Source: Bacteroidota bacterium | GTDB lineage: Bacteria > Bacteroidota > Rhodothermia > Rhodothermales > DATKEJ01 | Direction of reading: 5' to 3' | Assembly: GCA_038749615.1 (NCBI GenBank) | Contig: JBCDHV010000001.1 | Coordinates: forward strand, 1 to 35,657 | DNA length: 35,657 nucleotides | Shown here: in pieces, positions 1,609 through 13,504 of the stretch | How the letters are laid out: every line of letters begins with the position of its first letter | How positions within the stretch are numbered: the stretch's first letter is position 1 | Translations under genes and position numbers: made by a program | The notes under the pieces: model-generated | What the model saw: only the letters and a program-made list of their open reading frames with translations | Database searches by the model: none | What the model was told of the DNA's origin: nothing

Positions 1609-2820
1609 GTGCCGGCTTCGTTTGGCCGGACGGTTACTCAGATGTATAATTCGGCAATGGTCCAACCCGTCACCACATTGAGCGCTTCAGCAGACAAAAA
1701 CGGACTGCAGATTGGCCTTTTCGACGATGCGGAAGGGCTTCGAGCAGGCTTGCTAGGCTTGTCACAGACCCCAGGGGTCGGCTTGCAGTCGCTCAAGAAG
1801 CTTTACCGCACTGGCTTTTTTCTCGGATTGCCATCCGCTCCAGTTGAGGATCTTGTTGAGCGGGCTGTAAAGGTTCTCTCTGGGGCGAGCTTGGAAGGTG
1901 TACGAGAAGCACTTGGCAACAGAGAGAAGGTCATGCAGCGAGGCCGCAAGGTGCTCGGTGAGCTTCGTGCTGCTGAAATTCATGTCACTTTTGAACACGA
2001 GAAGTCGTTTCCTCGCCGTCTTCGAGACCTAGCTGAGCCTCCGCTTTGGATTTTTTACAGAGGAAGCTTGAAAGCGATATGGTCCAGAACCGCAGTCGCG
2101 CTCATAGGCACGAGAAGCCCCTCCGATTTTGGGGCCCGGCTAGCTTTAAACTGTGGATTTCATCTAGCTACGCGTGGCCATGTGGTTCTCTCGGGTCTTG
2201 CCCGGGGCATTGATCAGGCAGCGCACGAAGGGTGTCTGGAGGCAGGCGGCATCACCGTTGCTGTTCTGGCACAGGGACTTGCTTCGGATCTGTCAAGTAC
2301 AGCCAAATCGCTTGCCAACGAGGCAGTTGCAAACGAAGGAGCAGTCGTCTCTGAGTATTTGCCTTTTGATCCGCCTAACCGGTCAGCTTTTCTGCGTCGC
2401 AACGAGATTATTGCCGCTCTCGCTCGCTTGGTTGTGCCCGTTGAGTATCCGGAAGTCCAGAGTGGGACCGGTGCTACCGTTCGGCGAGCAATGGCGATAA
2501 AGCGTCCGTTGGCCGGAATTTCGAGCAGTCGCTTCGAAGGGCCAGCATCTGAAGCGACTCAACGCAACTTGAGGAGCGCAGGCATTACAGTCTACGATCT
2601 CCATAACGGCGAGGCTGAGCGCTTCTGGACGCATGTAGCGAAGCTCGTGGATGCTCGCGAGGCAGCCGAGAACAGACGAACTTTGCTTGGCCGGCGTGCT
2701 GAGCATTTTGCCCGCCTGCTTGCAATCGAGGCTAAGTCGCGCTCCATGGATCCAGGCGAAATCGATTCGTTCTTGGATCTTCTTACGAAAGCAGTTCGGA
2801 GGAGCATTGCCGGTGATTAA
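1609..2820 (+). CDS. DprA/Smf-like (SLOG Rossmann) protein; ShosA-like
   Basis: Motifs match the DprA Rossmann core: LIGTRSPSDFGARLA...VVLSGLARGIDQAAHEG...GITVAVLAQGL...SEY...FLRRNEIIAAL. An N-terminal HhH/SAM-like LGLSQTPGVGLQSLKKL is also present. The start is uncertain (GTG 1609, ATG 1642 or ATG 1657). Confidence 0.8.
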   Translation: MPASFGRTVTQMYNSAMVQPVTTLSASADKNGLQIGLFDDAEGLRAGLLGLSQTPGVGLQSLKKLYRTGFFLGLPSAPVEDLVERAVKVLSGASLEGVREALGNREKVMQRGRKVLGELRAAEIHVTFEHEKSFPRRLRDLAEPPLWIFYRGSLKAIWSRTAVALIGTRSPSDFGARLALNCGFHLATRGHVVLSGLARGIDQAAHEGCLEAGGITVAVLAQGLASDLSSTAKSLANEAVANEGAVVSEYLPFDPPNRSAFLRRNEIIAALARLVVPVEYPEVQSGTGATVRRAMAIKRPLAGISSSRFEGPASEATQRNLRSAGITVYDLHNGEAERFWTHVAKLVDAREAAENRRTLLGRRAEHFARLLAIEAKSRSMDPGEIDSFLDLLTKAVRRSIAGD

Positions 2821-3952
2821 GCTACTCGTCACCGATGGAGACGGAACCCTATTCGCTCCGAGTGAAGCGGACTACCTGGGCGATTTTCGTGTATGGCTAA
2901 GGCAAGAAGGGATTGCGCTTGGGGTTGCTAGCAATGGACAGCGAGGAGTGATTCTCCGCCGGTTTGCCGACCACGGGATTAGTCCTCCAGACTACATCGT
3001 CACTCGGGCAGATGTGGGCAATAAAAAAAAGCCGAGCCCTGCTTTTGTTGATAAGCTGATGGAACAGGCAGGCGTAGAGCCAAGAGAGACTGCTTACATT
3101 GGAGATGACGAGAGAACGGATAACTATTTGGCTATCAATTCGCGAGTCATGCCACTGCTGGCAAGGTATTCGGAGGGCTACAGTGGCAAGTACGCATTTC
3201 CGATTAGCTCGCTTTATGGGTTGAAGCGTTTCTTAGAGGTCTTCGGCCGTCAGCCTGCTCCCTACTTTGGGTGGGTGTGCAAGAGTGACAACTATGACTT
3301 CCGCGCTGTAATCAGCCAGCACTCCCGCATAGGAAGCCAAATGCGAGCGGTTCTCAAGGAGCACCGCGACGTGCAAGTGGGTCCGGGAATGAGCCTGCGA
3401 CCCCTGCTGTTCTACTACACACTTTCGCAGTGCTACTTGAGTGGTGCACACGATGGGAAACGACTCATCGCCGTCTATCCTGGCAGTCAACCCAAGCGGC
3501 CCAACTCCACGCTGGCTGAGTTTGGTGAACTTTTCGACCTGACCTCGCAATCCAACTACCTTACAGATCTCCTAATCCGTGAGAAACCCGCCCCAGAACA
3601 GAAGAAGGCTGGAGTCCGGCGGTCGTTTGGTCCGCAGCTCGAGACCGTTCGCCTAAACGATGCGCACAAGAGGAGAATCAGTGGAAAGAGCGTGTTGGTA
3701 CTCGACGACTACACAACGTCTGGCGTGAGTCTGGCTGTCGCCCATGCACTTCTCAAGCAAGCAGGAGCAAGCAAAGTGATCGGCGTAGCCATCGGTAAAT
3801 TCCGAAACAAGCAGCGCGTCGTGAAGCTGCCGGCGAGCTACGACCCCTTCCGTGTCATGTCAGCTGGCACCAGGCTTGAAGAGGACGTACTCGATGGCGT
3901 GCAGCACGCCGAAGCTGATCAGCATTTCTACGACCGGGTCATTTCCGCGTGA
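2813..3952 (+). CDS. HAD-like phosphatase domain fused to a phosphoribosyltransferase (PRTase) domain; ShosT-like
   Basis: GTG 2813 is preceded by GGAGGAG and overlaps the upstream stop (GTGATTAA). HAD motifs are VTDGDGTL (DxDxT), GVASNG, KKPSP and YIGDDERTD. The C-terminal PRPP loop is SVLVLDDYTTSGVSL. Confidence 0.75.
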   Translation: MIKLLVTDGDGTLFAPSEADYLGDFRVWLRQEGIALGVASNGQRGVILRRFADHGISPPDYIVTRADVGNKKKPSPAFVDKLMEQAGVEPRETAYIGDDERTDNYLAINSRVMPLLARYSEGYSGKYAFPISSLYGLKRFLEVFGRQPAPYFGWVCKSDNYDFRAVISQHSRIGSQMRAVLKEHRDVQVGPGMSLRPLLFYYTLSQCYLSGAHDGKRLIAVYPGSQPKRPNSTLAEFGELFDLTSQSNYLTDLLIREKPAPEQKKAGVRRSFGPQLETVRLNDAHKRRISGKSVLVLDDYTTSGVSLAVAHALLKQAGASKVIGVAIGKFRNKQRVVKLPASYDPFRVMSAGTRLEEDVLDGVQHAEADQHFYDRVISA

Positions 3953-4015: not shown

Positions 4016-4459
4016 TCAATCCAAGAAGGGCGGTTGGTTCCAGTGGCGGCCCACTGCACCCTCACTCCATTTTGGTAGCTTTCTTCCCTGATAGATTGCC
4101 ACGAGATCGTTTCCACAGGTAGACGTATAAGATTTTCCTTTGTGATCTTCGTACGTAGACCCGATTCCTGTTGTGTTTACGTGGCCAAGCCACTTGAGCA
4201 AAAATACAGACCCTTTGGCCATTGGCGGGATTCGCACAGGATTAAACCAGGATCCGGAGGGGTTCTTCTGAGCCACTACAACGTTGAGTGCGGGACCGTT
4301 TCCTATGTTATGGATACGCCAACCGGTATCTCCGTCATATTCTATTGAGAGCACGGGTACTATCCGAGACCTGAACGAGCGAAGCGTCTGCCAAAATGAG
4401 AGAGCAAACGAAACAAGTGAGAGGATAAAAGCAGGAGCAATCAAGGTCTCGAAATCCAT
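4016..4459 (-). CDS. Small membrane-anchored protein (N-terminal TM helix plus beta-rich domain), unknown function
   Basis: 147-aa ORF in low-GC DNA. The N-terminal hydrophobic helix is LIAPAFILSLVSFALSFW. It is convergent with the PRTase gene. Confidence 0.55.
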   Translation of the reverse strand: MDFETLIAPAFILSLVSFALSFWQTLRSFRSRIVPVLSIEYDGDTGWRIHNIGNGPALNVVVAQKNPSGSWFNPVRIPPMAKGSVFLLKWLGHVNTTGIGSTYEDHKGKSYTSTCGNDLVAIYQGRKLPKWSEGAVGRHWNQPPFLD

Positions 4460-4764: not shown

Positions 4765-7389
4765 TCAGTTTTCGGAGTTTAATATCCTATTTAAGTCTAG
4801 AACACCGAATGCATACCATTTGTGCCGCGTACTTGCAGACACTTCATCCATGGGCCTCACACGCCAATCGATCTGATGCGACAAATCTTCGATGTGGACC
4901 GAGAGGACGCGAGCTGCCTCTTCAAGGAAAAAGTCGAACAAAAGGTTTTTGTTGGTTTTAGGCAGTTGCTTTGTATTCATGCCGTCAGGGGAATTTCCAA
5001 ACGATTCCACATCGTCATTTGAACTTTGAGTAGCCTTCCATTGATGTTCAATTATCAAGACGTTGTCCGGGATCGGGATGAACACTGGCGCTTGATTTGA
5101 GACGAAAAACGGGTGTACAAAAACTATCTCTTCGTGCTGCAGAAAATCTGAAATGTTGGATTTACATATGGCGCCAGAACGTGTAAGCGCGAATGCTAAA
5201 TCGCCTATGTCGCCTCCAAAGGCGCTAATTTTTTCTGCTACCTCGATCTGCGTGCGAATCGGAAGACGTAAAGCCTCAGCGAGGCGGGCTTGCTCGGTAG
5301 CCCATGTTGCATAAATGGTCATATCTCCCATTAGCGCAGCCTGATTTCTGGCGGCTACACTCGGCACACTCTTTAGCACGCCCTGAAACTGAAGCGAATC
5401 GGACGCTCTGAATCCCCCAGTGGTAAGCAAGCCCCTGTCAGCGGATCTGGAGCTCGCGTTGCCGTCCTCGTCCTCATCAAAGAATGTAGGAATAGCAATG
5501 CATGCTCTTCCTAAATTGTCATCCAAGATGCGCAGTCGTGCCCCGTCTCTATCACGCTCCTTTTGGATTGACCCGCCAGAGTCGATCCGGTCAAGCAGAG
5601 TCTGCCCCTCAATACTGAGCCAGTCGTTTGCTTTCACCGCAAGAGTCAATTCGCCCTCATCGGCGTAGAGGTCGACATCCAAAGTTGGGCAAAGCCATGC
5701 GCAACATTGTGCAAGCGTGAATGTGGAGTGTCGCGCACGCGCAACTAAGAGTCCCGAATTCGCCGGCGACAGGCCATCGCGAAACCACACCCTGACGACT
5801 GTACCGGCATCAAGCAGTTCAGGTGTGACGTTGCCGGTTTTCAGAATAGGCCGGGTCCCGAGACCACCGGTAAATTCCAGTGTGAGCGTCTCGCTGCTTG
5901 CGCGGTCCGGCCGGCGTGTGACAACCCGGACGTGGTCACCCCACATGAAGACGGAGAAGAAACCAATGCCAAACTGGCCGGTGGCCTCAAACCCCTTGCG
6001 CTCCAAGCCGGGCAGCTCCGCATGCATGAGCGACGATCCCCAGAACGAGGTGCTAAAATCCAAAAAGGGTCCCGTCAGCACGTCGACCGACATACCGATA
6101 CCTGTGTCCTTAACCTCAAGCCAGTGGCCGTCGTCGTCTTGGCCAGTGTGGACGACGATGTGCCCCCAGTCGTTTTCTCTGGATTCGAGCAGCCGCCGGG
6201 CACGCACGGCGTCGGCTGCGTTCTGAATCAGCTCACGGAGAGGGACCGTAGGGCTGTCTCCGTAGAGTTTCTCGCCCCCCAAGGCAGAGATGAGGGAAAC
6301 GACATCACTCACCTGCACGCGGGCGTCGACGGGCAGCCAGCCGTTTGTGCGGACGAGCTGCGCGAGGCTTTCGGGGGCGTCGGTGTAGGCGACGCTCCGA
6401 GCTGCTAGCCGAGGCCGGTCCGTGTCGGCAAGCAGCGTGTCGGTTCGGCGCAACTCTTGGTCGACCATGCGGAGCGTGTCCGCGCAGAGCCACCACGCCT
6501 CTGCCTGGGCTTCCTCGAAATCGCTGCTCGAGGTGTACTCGAGCCGGTCTCTTTCGAGCCTGGGCTGATTGAGTTTGGCCTGAAACGTCCAGTGATCCGC
6601 GCTGTAGCCTTCAGGCCGGCGGAGCGCGTGAAGGAAGGGATCTGCCCGCCGCTTGTCCAGGTGGCTGGCGTCGGCCGTGCGGAGCATACAGGCGAGCTTG
6701 ACGGGATCGATCGTCCACCTCCTATTGAATCCCCCAGGCGCTCCTATTCTCGAGGGGAAGCCCCTTGCGATCTGATCGATAGGCCACCAATGGCTGTGGG
6801 CGATCCGGCCGATCAGCGAGCCGTAGCTGCTCCGGAGGTTCGCATCCTCAATCAGGTGGAGGGTGCCGCCGGCCGGGTCTGGCCACGAGACGAGCGCGAG
6901 CCGCTCGGCCTGCTCAGCGTGCCGCATCCGCAGCACGTGCTCGGTTGCGCGCTGGGCGATCTCAGCCGGCGGATCCTTGATCTGCTCCTCGGTAGCCGGC
7001 CGGCCGTGTTCGCGCCGGAGCATGCCGGCCACCGTGTCGAGCCAGAGGTCCGAGCTCTTCAGCTCCTCAATGCCGGCCGGGTAGGCAGCCAATCCCAGGC
7101 CGAGGTCGTGGATCAGGAAGGCGCCGCCGAGCACGTACGCCTCAGCCGGGGTGATGGGGTAATCGTCGCCGGCGATCAGGTCTGCCATCTCCCAGAGCGC
7201 GTCGATGTGCGTGATATCGTGGACCGTGAAGTCGGGGAGGTCACGACCGATCTCGGCAGCCAGCGTGGCGGCTCGCTCTCTGAAGCGCTCGAAGCTGGTA
7301 CGCAGGCGAGTGCGGTTGCTCTCTTCAGGGTCGCCCGTCCGCTGGGCCAGCGTTCTGTGCCAGAGATTCGTGTTCGCGTACCGGGACAT
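4765..7389 (-). CDS. HD-domain plus GHKL (Hsp90/MORC-type) ATPase protein, 874 aa
   Basis: The N-terminal HD-type dyads are FTVHDITHIDALW and AFLIHDLGLG. The central Bergerat fold shows LRELIQNAADA (N box), EVKDTGIGMS (G1) and TGQFGIGFFSVF (G2). Confidence 0.85.
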   Translation of the reverse strand: MSRYANTNLWHRTLAQRTGDPEESNRTRLRTSFERFRERAATLAAEIGRDLPDFTVHDITHIDALWEMADLIAGDDYPITPAEAYVLGGAFLIHDLGLGLAAYPAGIEELKSSDLWLDTVAGMLRREHGRPATEEQIKDPPAEIAQRATEHVLRMRHAEQAERLALVSWPDPAGGTLHLIEDANLRSSYGSLIGRIAHSHWWPIDQIARGFPSRIGAPGGFNRRWTIDPVKLACMLRTADASHLDKRRADPFLHALRRPEGYSADHWTFQAKLNQPRLERDRLEYTSSSDFEEAQAEAWWLCADTLRMVDQELRRTDTLLADTDRPRLAARSVAYTDAPESLAQLVRTNGWLPVDARVQVSDVVSLISALGGEKLYGDSPTVPLRELIQNAADAVRARRLLESRENDWGHIVVHTGQDDDGHWLEVKDTGIGMSVDVLTGPFLDFSTSFWGSSLMHAELPGLERKGFEATGQFGIGFFSVFMWGDHVRVVTRRPDRASSETLTLEFTGGLGTRPILKTGNVTPELLDAGTVVRVWFRDGLSPANSGLLVARARHSTFTLAQCCAWLCPTLDVDLYADEGELTLAVKANDWLSIEGQTLLDRIDSGGSIQKERDRDGARLRILDDNLGRACIAIPTFFDEDEDGNASSRSADRGLLTTGGFRASDSLQFQGVLKSVPSVAARNQAALMGDMTIYATWATEQARLAEALRLPIRTQIEVAEKISAFGGDIGDLAFALTRSGAICKSNISDFLQHEEIVFVHPFFVSNQAPVFIPIPDNVLIIEHQWKATQSSNDDVESFGNSPDGMNTKQLPKTNKNLLFDFFLEEAARVLSVHIEDLSHQIDWRVRPMDEVSASTRHKWYAFGVLDLNRILNSEN

Positions 7390-7692: not shown

Positions 7693-9579
7693 CTAGAGCA
7701 TGGGGTTATCCAAGTCCTCCTCCGAGTAGTTCATTTCCTTGAGAAGATCTTCAATATTGGTTTCCATGCCAGAGAGGAGCCGGTCAAGAACACGGTCGTA
7801 ATCATCCTCCAGCTTACCGAGGCGCTGCCGCACGCGCGTGCGGCGCACCTCAATGGCCCGAAGTCGCTCATTGTACGATTTTATCTTACCGTCGTAGCTG
7901 CCCGAAGACTCTAGTTTTTCTAGTTTTGTAGCTTCAAGACTTGCAATCTCATCCAAAAGCGACTGGTGCTTTTTTATTAGATGAATGCTAATGTTCTCAC
8001 CTGGAGATAAAGTGATTATACCTTCAACCTCCTCAAGCTCAGATCGAAGACTTTTAGTCATAGCATCGATTTGGTCAATAGATCTTGAGAAAGCTTCAGA
8101 TTCGCTGATGATAGCGTCAAGTTGCAGCAGGGCGGAGTCATATGCGTCGTCCTCTTGAGCAATCCTGGTTCTGGTGTCGCCTATTGCTGCCTGGATTTTG
8201 TTCAATAGAGCATCAGTCTTAGAGTCGGCATGTGCTTCGTCTTCCTCTACTCTAAGACGGATCTCGGCTCTTTGCTTATCGAGCTTCTCCCGCTTCTCTT
8301 TTTCAGCAGCGTCGTTTTCTCTTTTCTCATCCCTCGCCCTTTGGCGGGCTCGTCGAGATCTTTCGGCTTCGTCTAAGAGCGATTTGTCTCTACGAGCTTG
8401 TGCCTTTTTGAGGTCGAACTCGTTAAGCCATTCTTCAAAATCATAGTCGCGTAAAGGCGATCTTGAGTAAGACCGGTTCTCTTCATATTCGATATACTCA
8501 TCGTAGGCGCCTTGTATGTACCTTTCCCACCTGCTCTGGAGATACCCGTTCAGGTATAGCCTAATTGCGTGTGGCTGCAGCAATTTTATCAGAATCGTTG
8601 AAAGGAACATCCCGTAAAGCAGCAGGATGGCTAGTCGCTCGGCCTTTTGATATGCATTATTTGAGCCCATGAGCTCGATCTGGATCTGTCGATTCGCAAA
8701 TGATCCAACTAGGGAGGGGACACCGTAGGTAGTCACCAGAGAGTCGTAAGGCATGCCTTTGATTCTCGCCGACTCTGAATTGAAGAGAGAATCAATGGCG
8801 CTCAGCTCAATCTCCTTGGCCTTGATGTTCTGTTCCATGGAGATGGCAACGACACTCCTTCCATAAGACCGAGATCCCCCGGTGCCATTAATTTCTGCAG
8901 TAAGACTGTCTCTGAGTGCATCGAGAGAGCTGGTGAGTTTAGCCTTGCGGTCAGCATTTCTAGACCGGAGAGTGTCAACGAGCACTCTCCTTTGCTCGCC
9001 ACGCTTCTCGGCCAAGGCAGCGTCTATATCCTCAGTGATCAGTATCTGAGCTAGGTATGGAGCAGTTATGAACGTGAAGCCAAGCAGGACGCCAATTCGA
9101 AGCGAAACTGCCAAGAACAGCTTTAAAGATTCACCAGACGCAAGACTATATATGCGGGCAAAAATGGAATCCAAGTGTTCTGGCTTGCCCTCCCTGTCTT
9201 CCTGGGCCAAATAAGACGGTTTCGAGAAATCGCTGGTTATGAAGGTGGAATCGATAAACCATATCATTCCAGCAACAACTAGCCCAACGGCTACACCAGA
9301 GATCCACCTGCCAGCCGTACTTTCAAAAGGCAAAATATCCTGAACAATGATCGTCCAGGTAAAGCCTTCTATGATCGCCATGGCAATGGCTAAAAACGCC
9401 ATAGCCCCTAGCCATGCTCCTGCTAGCGGTAGTAGATTCTTCCTTCCATGGGGACGCATCAGCAAGGTTCGCCTGAATCGCTCCCCTGTCGAAGGTTCGT
9501 CCCGAGTCAAATCCGGGTGCTGCGTTTCCTTAGCGCTACGGTGTTCCATAATTCCCCGCGAAGTATCAAATAATTCCAC
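7693..9579 (-). CDS. Multi-pass membrane protein with internal and long C-terminal charged coiled coils (DUF4407-like)
   Basis: Four hydrophobic helices are visible (LAGAWLGAMAFLAIAMAII, ISGVAVGLVVAGMIWFI, LFLAVSLRIGVLLGFTFI, LAILLLYGMFLSTILI). The motif EINGTGGSRSYGRS is present, followed by about 250 aa of E/K/R-rich heptad-like sequence. The start is GTG 9579 or ATG 9549. Confidence 0.75.
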   Translation of the reverse strand: MELFDTSRGIMEHRSAKETQHPDLTRDEPSTGERFRRTLLMRPHGRKNLLPLAGAWLGAMAFLAIAMAIIEGFTWTIIVQDILPFESTAGRWISGVAVGLVVAGMIWFIDSTFITSDFSKPSYLAQEDREGKPEHLDSIFARIYSLASGESLKLFLAVSLRIGVLLGFTFITAPYLAQILITEDIDAALAEKRGEQRRVLVDTLRSRNADRKAKLTSSLDALRDSLTAEINGTGGSRSYGRSVVAISMEQNIKAKEIELSAIDSLFNSESARIKGMPYDSLVTTYGVPSLVGSFANRQIQIELMGSNNAYQKAERLAILLLYGMFLSTILIKLLQPHAIRLYLNGYLQSRWERYIQGAYDEYIEYEENRSYSRSPLRDYDFEEWLNEFDLKKAQARRDKSLLDEAERSRRARQRARDEKRENDAAEKEKREKLDKQRAEIRLRVEEDEAHADSKTDALLNKIQAAIGDTRTRIAQEDDAYDSALLQLDAIISESEAFSRSIDQIDAMTKSLRSELEEVEGIITLSPGENISIHLIKKHQSLLDEIASLEATKLEKLESSGSYDGKIKSYNERLRAIEVRRTRVRQRLGKLEDDYDRVLDRLLSGMETNIEDLLKEMNYSEEDLDNPML

Positions 9580-9815: not shown

Positions 9816-10529
9816 TCAGTCGTAACTCAGTCCGCAGTGGCGTCTGTCTGCAGGTAAGCTGAACTGCCTAGTTCCTTTGCCTCGCAAGTGCTCTCGCAAG
9901 CGAAGCCAGTCTCCGTCATACGTCCAATTTGATAGCGGTACGACTTTGACATATCCCTTCTTTCTATCGTTCTGGTTCTCTCTCCACGCGTTTCCCCCCG
10001 CTGCTCTCAGCGCGGCGTAGACTGCCCATATCCGATCTGGTCTGACTTGAAGATCTTGCATTGCAGCTCGCATGACCTTGTCCGCAGTCTCACGGTCTTC
10101 ACATTCCTGGGTCCAATAGAGATAATCGTGGATAATAGCGGCACGCTTATGCTTGCCAGCAACAGATACGTACGACCTTACACGTGGTGGTACGCTTGTC
10201 AAGTCGGTAACAAACCCTGCTGGGACAACGATTTTCTCTCCTCTGGTACCAACTTCGTAGATCATATTCTGAGCAAGCATCCAGAACTTTCCGTCCCTAA
10301 AGTCTAACAGCGCCGCCCTTGTAGGTGGTTTTCGATATGGGTCGTTAAGGTCAATTAGGTACAAATCGTCGTCGAGAAAACTCGCGCTGTCAGCAAGTGA
10401 GGTTACATAAAGCCAGAACATTTCTTTTGAAGAACTTTCACGGGGATAACTAATTTCCCTGTAGGCACACCCTGATAGCCATAGGACACATGTAAAAGCT
10501 AGAGTTACAGTAAGCGTGTACTTTCTCAT
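9816..10529 (-). CDS. DUF1353-family lipoprotein
   Basis: The start is at MRKYTL, with a signal peptide and lipobox (VLWLSGC). The DUF1353 signature is GFVTDLTSVPP...AAIIHDYLYW. Confidence 0.8.
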   Translation of the reverse strand: MRKYTLTVTLAFTCVLWLSGCAYREISYPRESSSKEMFWLYVTSLADSASFLDDDLYLIDLNDPYRKPPTRAALLDFRDGKFWMLAQNMIYEVGTRGEKIVVPAGFVTDLTSVPPRVRSYVSVAGKHKRAAIIHDYLYWTQECEDRETADKVMRAAMQDLQVRPDRIWAVYAALRAAGGNAWRENQNDRKKGYVKVVPLSNWTYDGDWLRLREHLRGKGTRQFSLPADRRHCGLSYD

Positions 10530-10820
10530 GGCAAGAATGGTCGGCACGCAGCACAAAGAGTAGGAGGGGCAAGCCTAACAGGTTTCCTACTGGCATTCTA
10601 ACGACTGATGTTGAACTTAGTCAAAGGCGTTCGGGATTGATTAAAAAATATACAGCCGGCGCAATAGACCGGAAAACCCCGGCATCCGGCATTTCAGCAC
10701 TGGCCGGCTAGTCGAGGTAAGTCTCCGGCCCATCGAGTTCAATCAGGAGAGAGTCGATGGCGTCTAGTGGCGGATCGTCGGGACGCGTGGTGCCGGTGAG
10801 GTGCCGGCGGGTGAGGAAGG

Positions 10821-10865: not shown

Positions 10866-11918
10866 CTACGAGTGCGTCAAAACCCGCGTGAGGGCATCGG
10901 CCCTGTTGAGCAGCCGGTTGATTACTACTGGTGGGGATACGTAAGAAGAAGGAACGCCGTACACGTCTCGCCGGCAGGTTGAGCAGCGGACGTCTTCCTC
11001 ATGAAAGCTTGCTCCGCACGCACCGCACAGGCGGACCACGACCTCTTCTTTTGAAAACATGCCCACGGTGCGTTGTTCGTTCACCACGGTCACAGGGAAT
11101 TGCTGCTCGACCAGCTCGGCGACTCTGCGCATGGGATTGATGTCGCCGGCTCCGTAGCTGCGCTTGGCTGCACCCGCAGCGGTAAGCCCGTTCAACCGTA
11201 CCTCTTCGTCTTCGCTCATCAGAAGTGGCCGGATGCGCCCTGGATCGAACAGACGGCCTTGCTCGACGACGATGCGCCCGAGCTCACCTGCGGAAAGCAC
11301 CGGACGCGCTAGCCAACCATAGACCGCCTCCTTCGCCGCCTCTTCGGGAAGCGCAAGAACGTATTTGATGATGGGGCCCGGGTTATCCTTATCAAGTCGC
11401 CGCCTGCTCTGCGCCAGCTCAGCGTTGATTTGCGGCAAAGCTGCTGGCGACCGGTGTTTGGCTGCAAAGGCGAGGTCACGCCTAGAGAGCGAGGACGTGT
11501 TTGCTGCTATCTCGGCAAGACGCATTTGAACCCCGAGAGCGTCAGCGTCTATGCGACTCGGTCTGTTCGGCTGGTCAGCGGGCGTGTCTAGCGTTACTGC
11601 TGTACCAGAAGCGGTCACCATGAACATGCTTTTGCCGCCCCCTGAGACCTCGTCAAAATCGACACGCACACCCACAACTGCGTGGGCTCCGCGATCCAGA
11701 CCAGCGTCGGCAAGCTGGTCAAGGACTTCCTTGTTGATCGAGGCCAACTGCTTGTGGTACGACTGGGATCGGCCACCGAACACGTCGCTGAAGCTTGCCG
11801 CCATGTCAGCAAAAAGATTCGTGCCGGCAACGACGTAGGCCGAAACTACTCCGAGGTACCCGGTAATGCGTGCGCCTTCGACGTGTGGAGTTGTGGTGAC
11901 GATGATTGGGGAAGCCAT
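10866..11918 (-). CDS. YbjQ (UPF0145/DUF74) domain protein with helical middle region and C-terminal zinc ribbon
   Basis: The first ~105 aa align with E. coli YbjQ as I recall it (TTP.VEG..I..YLGVV...G.N.F.D......GGRS.SY.K.L...GA.AVVGV..D...V....MFMV.ASGTAV). The C-terminus carries CGACG...CSTCRR. It is the last gene of the minus-strand lysogeny operon. Confidence 0.85.
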   Translation of the reverse strand: MASPIIVTTTPHVEGARITGYLGVVSAYVVAGTNLFADMAASFSDVFGGRSQSYHKQLASINKEVLDQLADAGLDRGAHAVVGVRVDFDEVSGGGKSMFMVTASGTAVTLDTPADQPNRPSRIDADALGVQMRLAEIAANTSSLSRRDLAFAAKHRSPAALPQINAELAQSRRRLDKDNPGPIIKYVLALPEEAAKEAVYGWLARPVLSAGELGRIVVEQGRLFDPGRIRPLLMSEDEEVRLNGLTAAGAAKRSYGAGDINPMRRVAELVEQQFPVTVVNEQRTVGMFSKEEVVVRLCGACGASFHEEDVRCSTCRRDVYGVPSSYVSPPVVINRLLNRADALTRVLTHS

Positions 11919-11982: not shown

Positions 11983-12747
11983 TCAGCGGCTGGGGAAGAG
12001 TTGCTGCTGCACCGCGCCGGCCATGCTCGTAATCGCCTCCTTCACTTCGCGCATCAGCATTTGGGAAACTTGCCGGCGTGGCCACAAGACAGGGCCAACC
12101 ACACGAAAGTCCACCTTCCGTCCGGTCTCTTGCTGAATGAGTGTACCGTCGTTACCTGGGGTGAGTACTTCGTCACGGTAGCCGGTGGAGCGGTTGTCGC
12201 ATTTTAGCACGAGACTACCATCACTGAGACGCTGGACCCGCCTAAGAATGAGGCGTCCATTGACTTCGAGAACGTGGCGACCCGAGCCGGCAATGCGGTC
12301 GGAAGCTCTGTAGAAGACCACGTCACCTTCGGTTGCACTTGGCTCCATGCAGTCGCCAGTCACGGCCCAGATTCCAATCTGTCCACCAAGCTCTATCCCG
12401 AGCACGGTTTGCAGGACGTAGCGATGCAGAAAGATCTCTTCAGTCTGATCTGACCCTGTGAGCCGGCGGTCGCAGACAGTGATCGCTACGTACGCATCGC
12501 TCGGAATTGGCCGCCGAGCGGAAGAGACCACGCTTGCAACTTCGCCTTCAGCTAGCCACTCGAAAGACACTTCCAATACGTGGGCATACAGAGCAAGCGC
12601 TCGGTTTGGAACGGGGTACTTCCCGGATTCATGTCGAACCACGCTGCGTAGATGCATCCCAGTCTTGTCCGCTAATTCGGACTGCGTCAGTGATCGGCGC
12701 TTCCGAGCTTTTTTCAGGCGGACAGAAACAGGGGACTCAGAAGGCAT
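11983..12747 (-). CDS. CI/LexA-like HTH-XRE plus S24-fold protein with substituted catalytic dyad (Ser to Cys, Lys to Arg)
   Basis: The HTH is RRSLTQSELADKTGMHLRSVVRHESG. The S24 region reads GDCMEP instead of G(D/T)SMEP, and LILRRV instead of VKRL/VKRI. Confidence 0.85.
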   Translation of the reverse strand: MPSESPVSVRLKKARKRRSLTQSELADKTGMHLRSVVRHESGKYPVPNRALALYAHVLEVSFEWLAEGEVASVVSSARRPIPSDAYVAITVCDRRLTGSDQTEEIFLHRYVLQTVLGIELGGQIGIWAVTGDCMEPSATEGDVVFYRASDRIAGSGRHVLEVNGRLILRRVQRLSDGSLVLKCDNRSTGYRDEVLTPGNDGTLIQQETGRKVDFRVVGPVLWPRRQVSQMLMREVKEAITSMAGAVQQQLFPSR

Positions 12748-12766
12748 GAGTGCGAAAGCGTCAGCG

Positions 12767-12803
12767 CTACCGGTTTACGAGCCGGCTCATCTGCTGGGTG
12801 ATG
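12767..12803. repeat. Direct-repeat copy B: genuine 3-prime end of the CI repressor gene (...TITQQMSRLVNR-stop)
   Basis: This is the partner of 10821-10857, 1946 bp away. Confidence 0.8.
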
Positions 12804-13504
12804 GTTGAGAGGATCGCCTGAGGCGTGTCCGGCGGAAAGACGACCCGGCCGCGAACGTTGACGCGCAACCGCAGGTCGTTGTCGTCGTCGCTGTACATGT
12901 CTTCACCCAGCGGTCGCAGCGTGCGGGTGACGTGAGCCGGATTGTCGCTCACCACCTTGATCGCGCCGCCTCCGAGCTTCTCGATGCGCTTGACCTCTTC
13001 GCCGTCGTCGTCGTCGAAGTAGAGCACGTAGCGGCCGGCGGCTGTGATGCCGTGGACCACCTCGACAAGAATGGGAGTGCCGTCGGGCAGCCACGGCTCC
13101 ATCGAGGTGCCACGCACCCTCGTCCAGTACGCCTCATCGGAATCGAGCGTGCGGCCACTCGTCCATGCCTTCAGGACGTCCACCGGGGTAATGATGTATT
13201 CGCCCGTGTCCTCTTGCTCTTGGCCCGGGCCGGCTCCGACGCCGCCGGCAAAATATCGATGCCGGACAACGCTGGAGGTACCTTCAGTCAGGCTTTCGGA
13301 GTGGCCGTTTGAGAGAGTTTGTTCGCCTTCTCCAATGGAGTGAAGCAGCCAGGCCCTTTTGTTTTTAGGAATTCTTCCGCCCAGATAATTCTTGAGCGTG
13401 GAGACTGAAATCTTGAGAGAGACGGCTGTCTCCTCTTGGTTTAAGCCCTTCTCTAGCATCCACGATCGAAGTAGAGCAGAGATTTTATCAGGTGAAATAG
13501 TCAA
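12767..13504 (-). CDS. CI-type prophage repressor (HTH plus intact S24 autopeptidase domain)
   Basis: The HTH is LNQEETAVSLKISVSTLKNYL. The S24 Ser motif is VRGTSMEPW and the Lys motif is EEVKRIEKL. The apparent start is TTG at 13504. It is divergent from an RHH gene. Confidence 0.85.
   Translation of the reverse strand: MTISPDKISALLRSWMLEKGLNQEETAVSLKISVSTLKNYLGGRIPKNKRAWLLHSIGEGEQTLSNGHSESLTEGTSSVVRHRYFAGGVGAGPGQEQEDTGEYIITPVDVLKAWTSGRTLDSDEAYWTRVRGTSMEPWLPDGTPILVEVVHGITAAGRYVLYFDDDDGEEVKRIEKLGGGAIKVVSDNPAHVTRTLRPLGEDMYSDDDNDLRLRVNVRGRVVFPPDTPQAILSTITQQMSRLVNR

Follow-up and report, generated by a model that had tools for sequence, protein, structure and literature searches.

What is a DprA-like gene doing beside a phage integrase, joined to a gene that fuses a HAD-like hydrolase domain to a phosphoribosyltransferase (PRTase) domain? 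The question is raised by a contig of 35,657 bp, analysed here in its entirety and referred to as the window, from a metagenome-assembled genome (MAG; 4.24 Mb, 85% complete) of an uncultured Rhodothermales bacterium, a host assignment that presupposes correct binning of the contig. The two genes, shosA (1642-2820, plus strand; 392 aa as publicly called, TAA stop at 2818-2820) and shosT (2813-3952, plus strand; 379 aa and a stop, GTG start), had been proposed in an initial annotation to be a pair of the ShosTA type, and PADLOC models, PDB sequence matches, fold matches and conserved pairing all agree with that proposal. Judged from its sequence, the pair is a divergent but clear new member of the known ShosTA toxin-antitoxin (TA) and anti-phage family, with the DprA-like ShosA as the putative antitoxin and ShosT, with a HAD-like N-domain and a PRTase C-domain, as the putative toxin. 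The characterised systems come from Escherichia coli APEC O1 and P2-like phages (PDB 8ZVA-8ZVD, 9VZO, 9W2P/9W2Q; Pu et al. 2025, PMC11961720; Yang et al. 2026, PMC12961424), and E. coli ShosTA is also the 'DprA-PRTase' cassette that the initial annotation had placed in P2 hotspots. It is the top sequence, profile and fold match to both window proteins.

The evidence for ShosT covers both of its domains. The protein matches two PADLOC models (PDLC03962, 8.7e-29; PDLC03012, 8e-11), both of which are also matched by E. coli ShosT, and its best PDB sequence match is E. coli ShosT (8zvb, 3e-8). When a profile of 21 relatives was aligned with E. coli ShosT using hhalign, the match extended over 371 columns and both domains (probability 99.9%, E 4e-31). 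Structure prediction, a check that the initial annotation had recommended for this second protein, pointed the same way: Foldseek matched the AlphaFold2 (AF2) model (predicted local distance difference test, pLDDT, 88.5) best to the E. coli ShosT crystals 8zvc, 8zvd and 8zvb, its top three matches (E 1e-21, TMq 0.78, both domains), and the fourth best was a single-domain HAD protein at 7e-6. The HAD-like hydrolase domain occupies residues ~1-125 (2813-3187, plus strand; Pfam HAD_2, 6.3e-11) and the PRTase domain residues ~126-379 (3188-3949, plus strand). The complete HAD motif set and the phosphoribosyl pyrophosphate (PRPP) loop that had been read in this gene are all present in the sequence, on the plus strand: motif I, DGDGT, at 2834-2848 (residues 8-12); motifs II (S40) and III (K73) within the HAD domain, as placed by residue mapping across 138 representatives; motif IV, GDDERTD, at 3101-3121 (residues 97-103); and the PRPP loop, VLVLDDYTTSG, at 3692-3724 (residues 294-304). 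The predicted protein thus carries every canonical HAD catalytic residue, namely D8, D10, S40, K73, D98 and D103. D298/D299 of the PRPP loop (3704-3709, plus strand) are equivalent to D331/D332 of E. coli ShosT, and the D331A/D332A substitution abolishes toxicity in that protein (PMC11961720).

The initial annotation had considered that the N-terminal HAD domain might mark a variant of ShosT. This suggestion failed, and a novel fusion was likewise rejected as a candidate: the domain occupies residues 1-164 of the E. coli ShosT crystal structure (PMC11961720, PMC12961424) and is present in almost all of the 138 aligned representatives, and because an N-terminal HAD-like domain is standard for ShosT, the HAD-PRTase fusion is not a variant and was already known. 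The closest single-domain folds found by Foldseek are the cap-less KDO8P/KDN9P phosphatases, and the ~27 residues that separate motifs I and II leave no room for a C1 cap in the window domain either. The NCBIfam HAD-IIIA model also matches the domain (2.4e-6), under its cut-off. Like these cap-less phosphatases, the window domain contains the DxDxT / S / K / GDxxxD set in full; unlike them, it is joined to a PRTase domain, a possible substrate-selecting partner, and shows no sign of tetramerisation or of a sugar-phosphate context.

For ShosA, the best PDB sequence match is E. coli ShosA (8zva/9vzo, 4e-30), with competence DprA ten orders weaker at 1e-20. The AF2 model (pLDDT 89.6) is matched best in Foldseek by E. 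coli ShosA 8zva (E 1.4e-18, TMt 0.83, 306 columns), followed by Streptococcus pneumoniae DprA (3uqz, E 4e-16). In the 392-aa numbering, the model comprises a disordered stretch (residues 1-27), a helical SAM-like domain (~30-110; five to six helices with pLDDT >90), a DprA Rossmann domain (~113-335) and a helical hairpin (338-389). The SAM-like helical and DprA Rossmann domains are shared with E. coli ShosA, as is the single-stranded DNA (ssDNA)-binding arginine triad, for which R158/R253/R281 in the window protein correspond to R139/R234/R261 in E. coli, in the contexts GTR, RRN and TVR. The description of ShosA as a full-length DprA/Smf-like protein with SLOG Rossmann motifs is correct in its family (Pfam DNA_processg_A, 2.3e-48; SLOG LDcluster4, 4.6e-7) and wrong in its length, as the DprA winged-helix domain PF17782, which is present in housekeeping DprAs among the relatives, has no Pfam match in ShosA and is replaced by the helical hairpin. 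This hairpin is kept in the six closest ShosA relatives and is specific to their clade. The profile search that had been recommended returned Pfam DNA_processg_A and HAD_2 together with significant PADLOC ShosA and ShosT models, and left Pribosyltran below its threshold.

A related family, PsyrTA/RqlHI, also combines a PRTase-containing toxin with a DprA-like antitoxin, and its PsyrA model matches the window ShosA (1.8e-24). PsyrT has a large N-terminal part, a RecQ-like helicase, that is not represented in the window ShosT, in which Pfam and NCBIfam scans found no helicase families. Identity with PsyrTA/RqlHI was rejected because the PsyrT match is limited to the PRPP loop (positions 639-686 of 689, 9e-7) and the PADLOC ShosA model PDLC03961 (1e-59) scores 200 bits on the antitoxin against 85 bits for PsyrA.

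As in E. coli, shosA precedes shosT and the two are tightly joined. The 8-nt overlap claimed for them can be read directly: the shosT start and the shosA stop share GTGATTAA at 2813-2820 on the plus strand, which is consistent with translational coupling of the two genes, and a Shine-Dalgarno-like GGAGGAG (2798-2804, plus strand) precedes the shosT GTG by 8 nt, still within the end of shosA. The shosT frame stays open back to an ATG at 2651, but GTG 2813 is taken as the start because homologues begin MIK(V/L)L(I/V)CDGDGT, aligned to VIKLLVTDGDGT. The start of shosA is less certain, with GTG 1609 (403 aa, as taken in the initial annotation), ATG 1642 (the public gene call) and ATG 1657 as candidates. 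A promoter-like site, TTGGCC-17-TATAAT (1622-1650, plus strand; 10/12 positions matching in a consensus scan), is the sole good one in the divergent intergenic region between the integrase gene and shosA; it spans the called ATG 1642 and ends 6 nt upstream of ATG 1657. It serves as a lead only, since promoter- and terminator-like sites in this region do not exceed the count expected from shuffled sequence. A genuine promoter here could give a leaderless shosA mRNA, with translation starting at 1657 instead of at ATG 1642.

The pairing itself is conserved. A DprA-like gene lies directly upstream of the ShosT relative, on the same strand, in 8/8 metagenomic or genomic contexts examined and in the P2-like E. 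coli phage 10W, where it is likewise immediately 5' of the toxin gene. Among these, L005, L007 and L008 have the DprA-like gene immediately 5' (L007 with a resolvase ~2 kb upstream), L011 has a 4-nt overlap within the pair and an integrase fragment 3' of it, and L012 and L013 show the same pairing, in L012 beside an island with PglZ, an SNF2 helicase and a methyltransferase. In a Nitrospira genome (L042, L043), the pair overlaps by 11 nt and comes right after an integrase, with a phage head protease nearby. The Nitrospira sp. locus (L042:5289-9173) is itself of note as a HAD-intact ShosTA directly after a tyrosine integrase with phage head genes beyond, an integrase-adjacent position shared with the window pair, yet the two integrases are unrelated. 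Among 400 sampled genomes of the phylum, only one other match, a weak one, was found, as expected for sporadic mobile cargo.

The extent of the ShosT family only became visible through an exhaustive HMMER search of 1.84 billion representatives, which returned 484 clusters at E<=1e-3 and 194 at E<=1e-10; a word-based homologue search with ShosT alone had found two relatives. Most representatives have 380-415 aa, with the alignment beginning at residue 2, and the HAD-PRTase two-domain architecture can therefore be said to define the family. Residues were counted over 138 near-full-length representatives and E. coli ShosT (from the P2-like phage 10W), with the N-terminus aligned in 126. The PRPP-loop aspartates are nearly invariant, D298 being present in 138/138 and D299 in 131/138. 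In the HAD domain, conservation is uneven: the D103 position is D in 134/138 and the K73 position K in 115 and R in 20, the nucleophile D8 is D in 100/126 and the general acid/base position D10 is D in only 35 of the aligned representatives, with S in 50 and T in 16. The complete D8/D10/K73/D98/D103 set is found in 28/126 (22%), mostly in the window ShosT's own clade. In a maximum-likelihood tree, this clade comprises 20 representatives (SH-aLRT, the approximate likelihood-ratio support, 100%), and 13/17 members with an aligned N-terminus retain the DxD and GD state. E. coli ShosT falls into a separate, 100%-supported clade of four, in which the nucleophile is present in 0/4; it has S9, A11 and R117 where the window protein has D8, D10 and D98, a correspondence on which MAFFT and hhalign are concordant, and the phage 10W protein (P0154, L001:1180-2454), of the E. 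coli type, is without the canonical nucleophile and metal ligands.

What is new beyond annotation is thus that the HAD catalytic residues are predicted to be complete in the window ShosT and degenerate in the only studied homologue. The sole biochemically studied ShosT comes from a small branch in which the HAD nucleophile and the metal-binding aspartates have been lost, whereas the nucleophile is kept in most of the family and the complete catalytic set in about a fifth of it, the window protein included. E. coli ShosT has been reported to have a Mg2+-independent pyrophosphatase activity, and the N-domain mutant R56A barely reduces its toxicity (PMC11961720); S9, A11 and R117 may fit such a Mg2+-independent, weakly contributing pyrophosphatase. 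In the available portions of PMC11961720 and PMC12961424, we found no mention of the loss of the nucleophile and metal ligands. In the discussion of PMC11961720, neither the acceptor substrate nor what the N-domain does is settled, and a HAD-intact ShosT such as the window protein is a sensible choice for enzymology. We tentatively raise the possibility, doubtful as it is, that the N-domain of the window clade is a competent Mg2+-dependent phospho-aspartyl HAD phosphatase that acts, beyond pyrophosphate (PPi), on the phosphoribosylated product of the PRTase domain, as a built-in 5'-nucleotidase step. If this were true, the phosphatase step would drain PRPP irreversibly or yield a toxic nucleoside, the published 'PRTase plus pyrophosphatase' model would describe a derived branch, and the window clade would be the better place to find the ShosT substrate.

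With family membership, domain architecture, intact catalytic and DNA-binding residues, conserved pairing, the gene overlap and the prophage location in view, we consider it probable that the pair is a ShosTA-family type IV TA and anti-phage module, carried as temperate-phage cargo in a Rhodothermales bacterium and working as in E. coli, from which toxicity, neutralisation, trigger and defence would all be carried over. Under this model, the PRTase domain of the toxin ShosT would bind PRPP and pass phosphoribose to an acceptor, and its action would disturb nucleotide (purine) metabolism and DNA replication; E. coli ShosT binds PRPP, requires the DD loop for killing and perturbs purine metabolism and DNA replication (PMC11961720, PMC12961424). 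The HAD-like N-domain would take off a phosphate-containing product. In the E. coli work this is PPi, released by the PRTase domain and proposed to be hydrolysed by the N-domain (PMC11961720; PMC12961424), and here it could possibly be the 5'-phosphate of the product. ShosA would offset the damage via the recombination machinery (RecA) without binding ShosT, and the gene overlap would tie its synthesis to the same transcript as that of ShosT; E. coli ShosA does not bind ShosT, and neutralisation requires ssDNA binding and RecA interaction (PMC11961720, PMC12961424). Shutdown of host expression, or a flood of ssDNA, upon phage infection would cost the cell its ShosA function, and ShosT would halt replication of both phage and cell, so that the lysogen population is protected. 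The triggers reported for E. coli are host-expression shut-off by T7 Gp0.7, upon which unstable ShosA decays, and possibly phage ssDNA (PMC11961720, PMC12961424).

Several observations weigh against so direct a transfer. The window ShosT is only ~21-24% identical to E. coli ShosT (379 aa against 424 aa), and ShosA is 34% identical to its counterpart across the aligned core, and because these identities are low, any transfer of function from E. coli spans a long distance. Pfam Pribosyltran matches ShosT at 2.8e-4, under its gathering score, with the match centred on the PRPP loop. In ShosA, the dimer-interface residues L181/F182 of the E. coli protein are replaced by E200/A201, helix alpha14 is unaligned, and the C-terminus is a predicted helical hairpin of ~55 residues instead of the disordered, instability-linked tail found in E. 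coli. The trigger is the step least safely transferred, because the ShosA tail and dimer interface differ, and the trigger logic of the window system may differ from that in E. coli. Finally, the phage-recombination setting of two relatives, L044 and L045, would also suit a function in the DNA metabolism of the phage itself. The two systems also share features: both toxins have a HAD-like N-domain and a PRTase C-domain with a DD PRPP loop, and both pairs travel with temperate phages, although the carrier is P2-like and found in Enterobacteria in one case and a lambdoid-style prophage of a Rhodothermales host in the other. The window thus adds a recognisable ShosTA module in the integrase-proximal cargo slot of a prophage of an uncultured Rhodothermales bacterium, which extends the phage carriers of ShosTA beyond the P2-like phages of Enterobacteria.

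A TA pair on a mobile element, directly beside the integrase, might also be mainly an addiction module that stabilises the prophage through post-segregational killing and has no role in excluding other phages, and maintenance is the classical role of TA modules (reviewed in the introduction of PMC12961424). We consider this unlikely, as plating of T7 falls by six orders of magnitude with the E. coli homologue (PMC11961720) and one relative is housed in a defence island of PglZ, SNF2 and methylase genes, on a contig with no visible phage genes (L012). Addiction and phage defence are mutually compatible roles. The locus of that relative is notable in its own right: L012:1-10392, on a 23.8-kb metagenomic contig, places a window-clade ShosTA pair directly 3' of a methyltransferase, an SNF2-type helicase and PglZ, a BREX-like island.

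It is very unlikely, in our estimation, that the pair is not a TA module at all and instead helps the carrying phage to handle DNA and nucleotides, with the DprA-like protein mediating recombination and the HAD-PRTase salvaging or modifying nucleotides. The intact HAD catalytic residues are what a working metabolic enzyme would have, the acceptor substrate of E. coli ShosT is not established (PMC11961720), and in L044 and L045 the pair, with an 11-nt overlap, directly follows genes for a YqaJ exonuclease, RusA and SSB and precedes a methyltransferase gene. Against this, the window pair is integrase-proximal and lies outside the replication module, which begins beyond 14 kb, the pair in L012 is found without phage replication genes in view, and the nearest homologues to have been characterised have proved to be a toxin and an antitoxin (PMC11961720, PMC12961424).

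A natural-competence pair of DprA and a ComFC-type PRTase that adjoins the integrase by chance can practically be dismissed, even though the window combines a DprA Rossmann fold, common to competence DprA (Smf) and ShosA, with the type I PRTase fold of ComFC and ShosT gives a weak ComF match (TIGR00201, 9.3e-4): that match reaches 19.2 bits against an equivalog cut-off of 233.55, ShosA reaches 141.7 bits against 191.15 for TIGR00732 (dprA) and is without the winged-helix tail, and no DNA-uptake genes were found near the pair. ComFC is not known to have a HAD domain. The MAG has its own housekeeping DprA on contig C617 (251 bits, with a winged-helix-like tail, ~63% identical to the DprAs of Rhodothermales MAGs) and a ComF-like gene on contig C138 (95 bits over the full model length), and because these are separate from the pair and unlinked to each other, the competence reading is removed; the grouping with competence genes and lack of a ShosTA match that the initial annotation had named as the contrary outcome is not what was found. 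A third, weak DNA_processg_A match (2.4e-10) occurs in the MAG in a 288-aa open frame (G000:C316:247-801).

The ShosTA module is carried by a lambdoid-style prophage with an integrase, cargo, CI-like repressors, and replication and head genes. As had been noted, the integrase adjoins the pair: it is the immediate neighbour of shosA on the minus strand, transcribed divergently. The gene encodes a tyrosine integrase (246-1550/1604; Pfam Phage_integrase, 1.4e-15, with SAM-like N-domains), the frame of which is open up to GTG 1604, with ATG 1550 (MGKTKRPKLPRG...) read as the likelier start; it is context only and stands outside the ShosTA system. Searches of genome contigs with the integrase and of viral contigs with the window ShosT found no close relatives of either. 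No tRNA was found in the window and no terminal repeat, and the prophage ends are therefore undefined. The shosA-shosT pair forms the first genes of a cargo stretch of lower GC (about 0.49-0.56) between the integrase and the CI-like repressors.

The other genes noted in this stretch are on the minus strand. Convergent with shosT is a 147-aa open reading frame (4016-4459) with a hydrophobic N-terminus and no Pfam or PADLOC match, the stop of which lies 63 nt from that of shosT with no terminator-like site between. It is followed by a gene for an 874-aa protein with an HD-CE domain (2.5e-54) and then a GHKL ATPase (HATPase_c_3) domain (4765-7389), a 628-aa membrane and coiled-coil protein with a faint DUF4407 match (7693-9579), a DUF1353 protein (9816-10556) and a YbjQ-domain fusion (10866-11918), none of which has a PADLOC match. 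The inner edge of the cargo region is formed by the two CI-like repressor genes, a tandem pair encoding helix-turn-helix and S24 peptidase proteins (11983-13504, minus strand), after which come the replication initiator, terminase, portal and major capsid genes.

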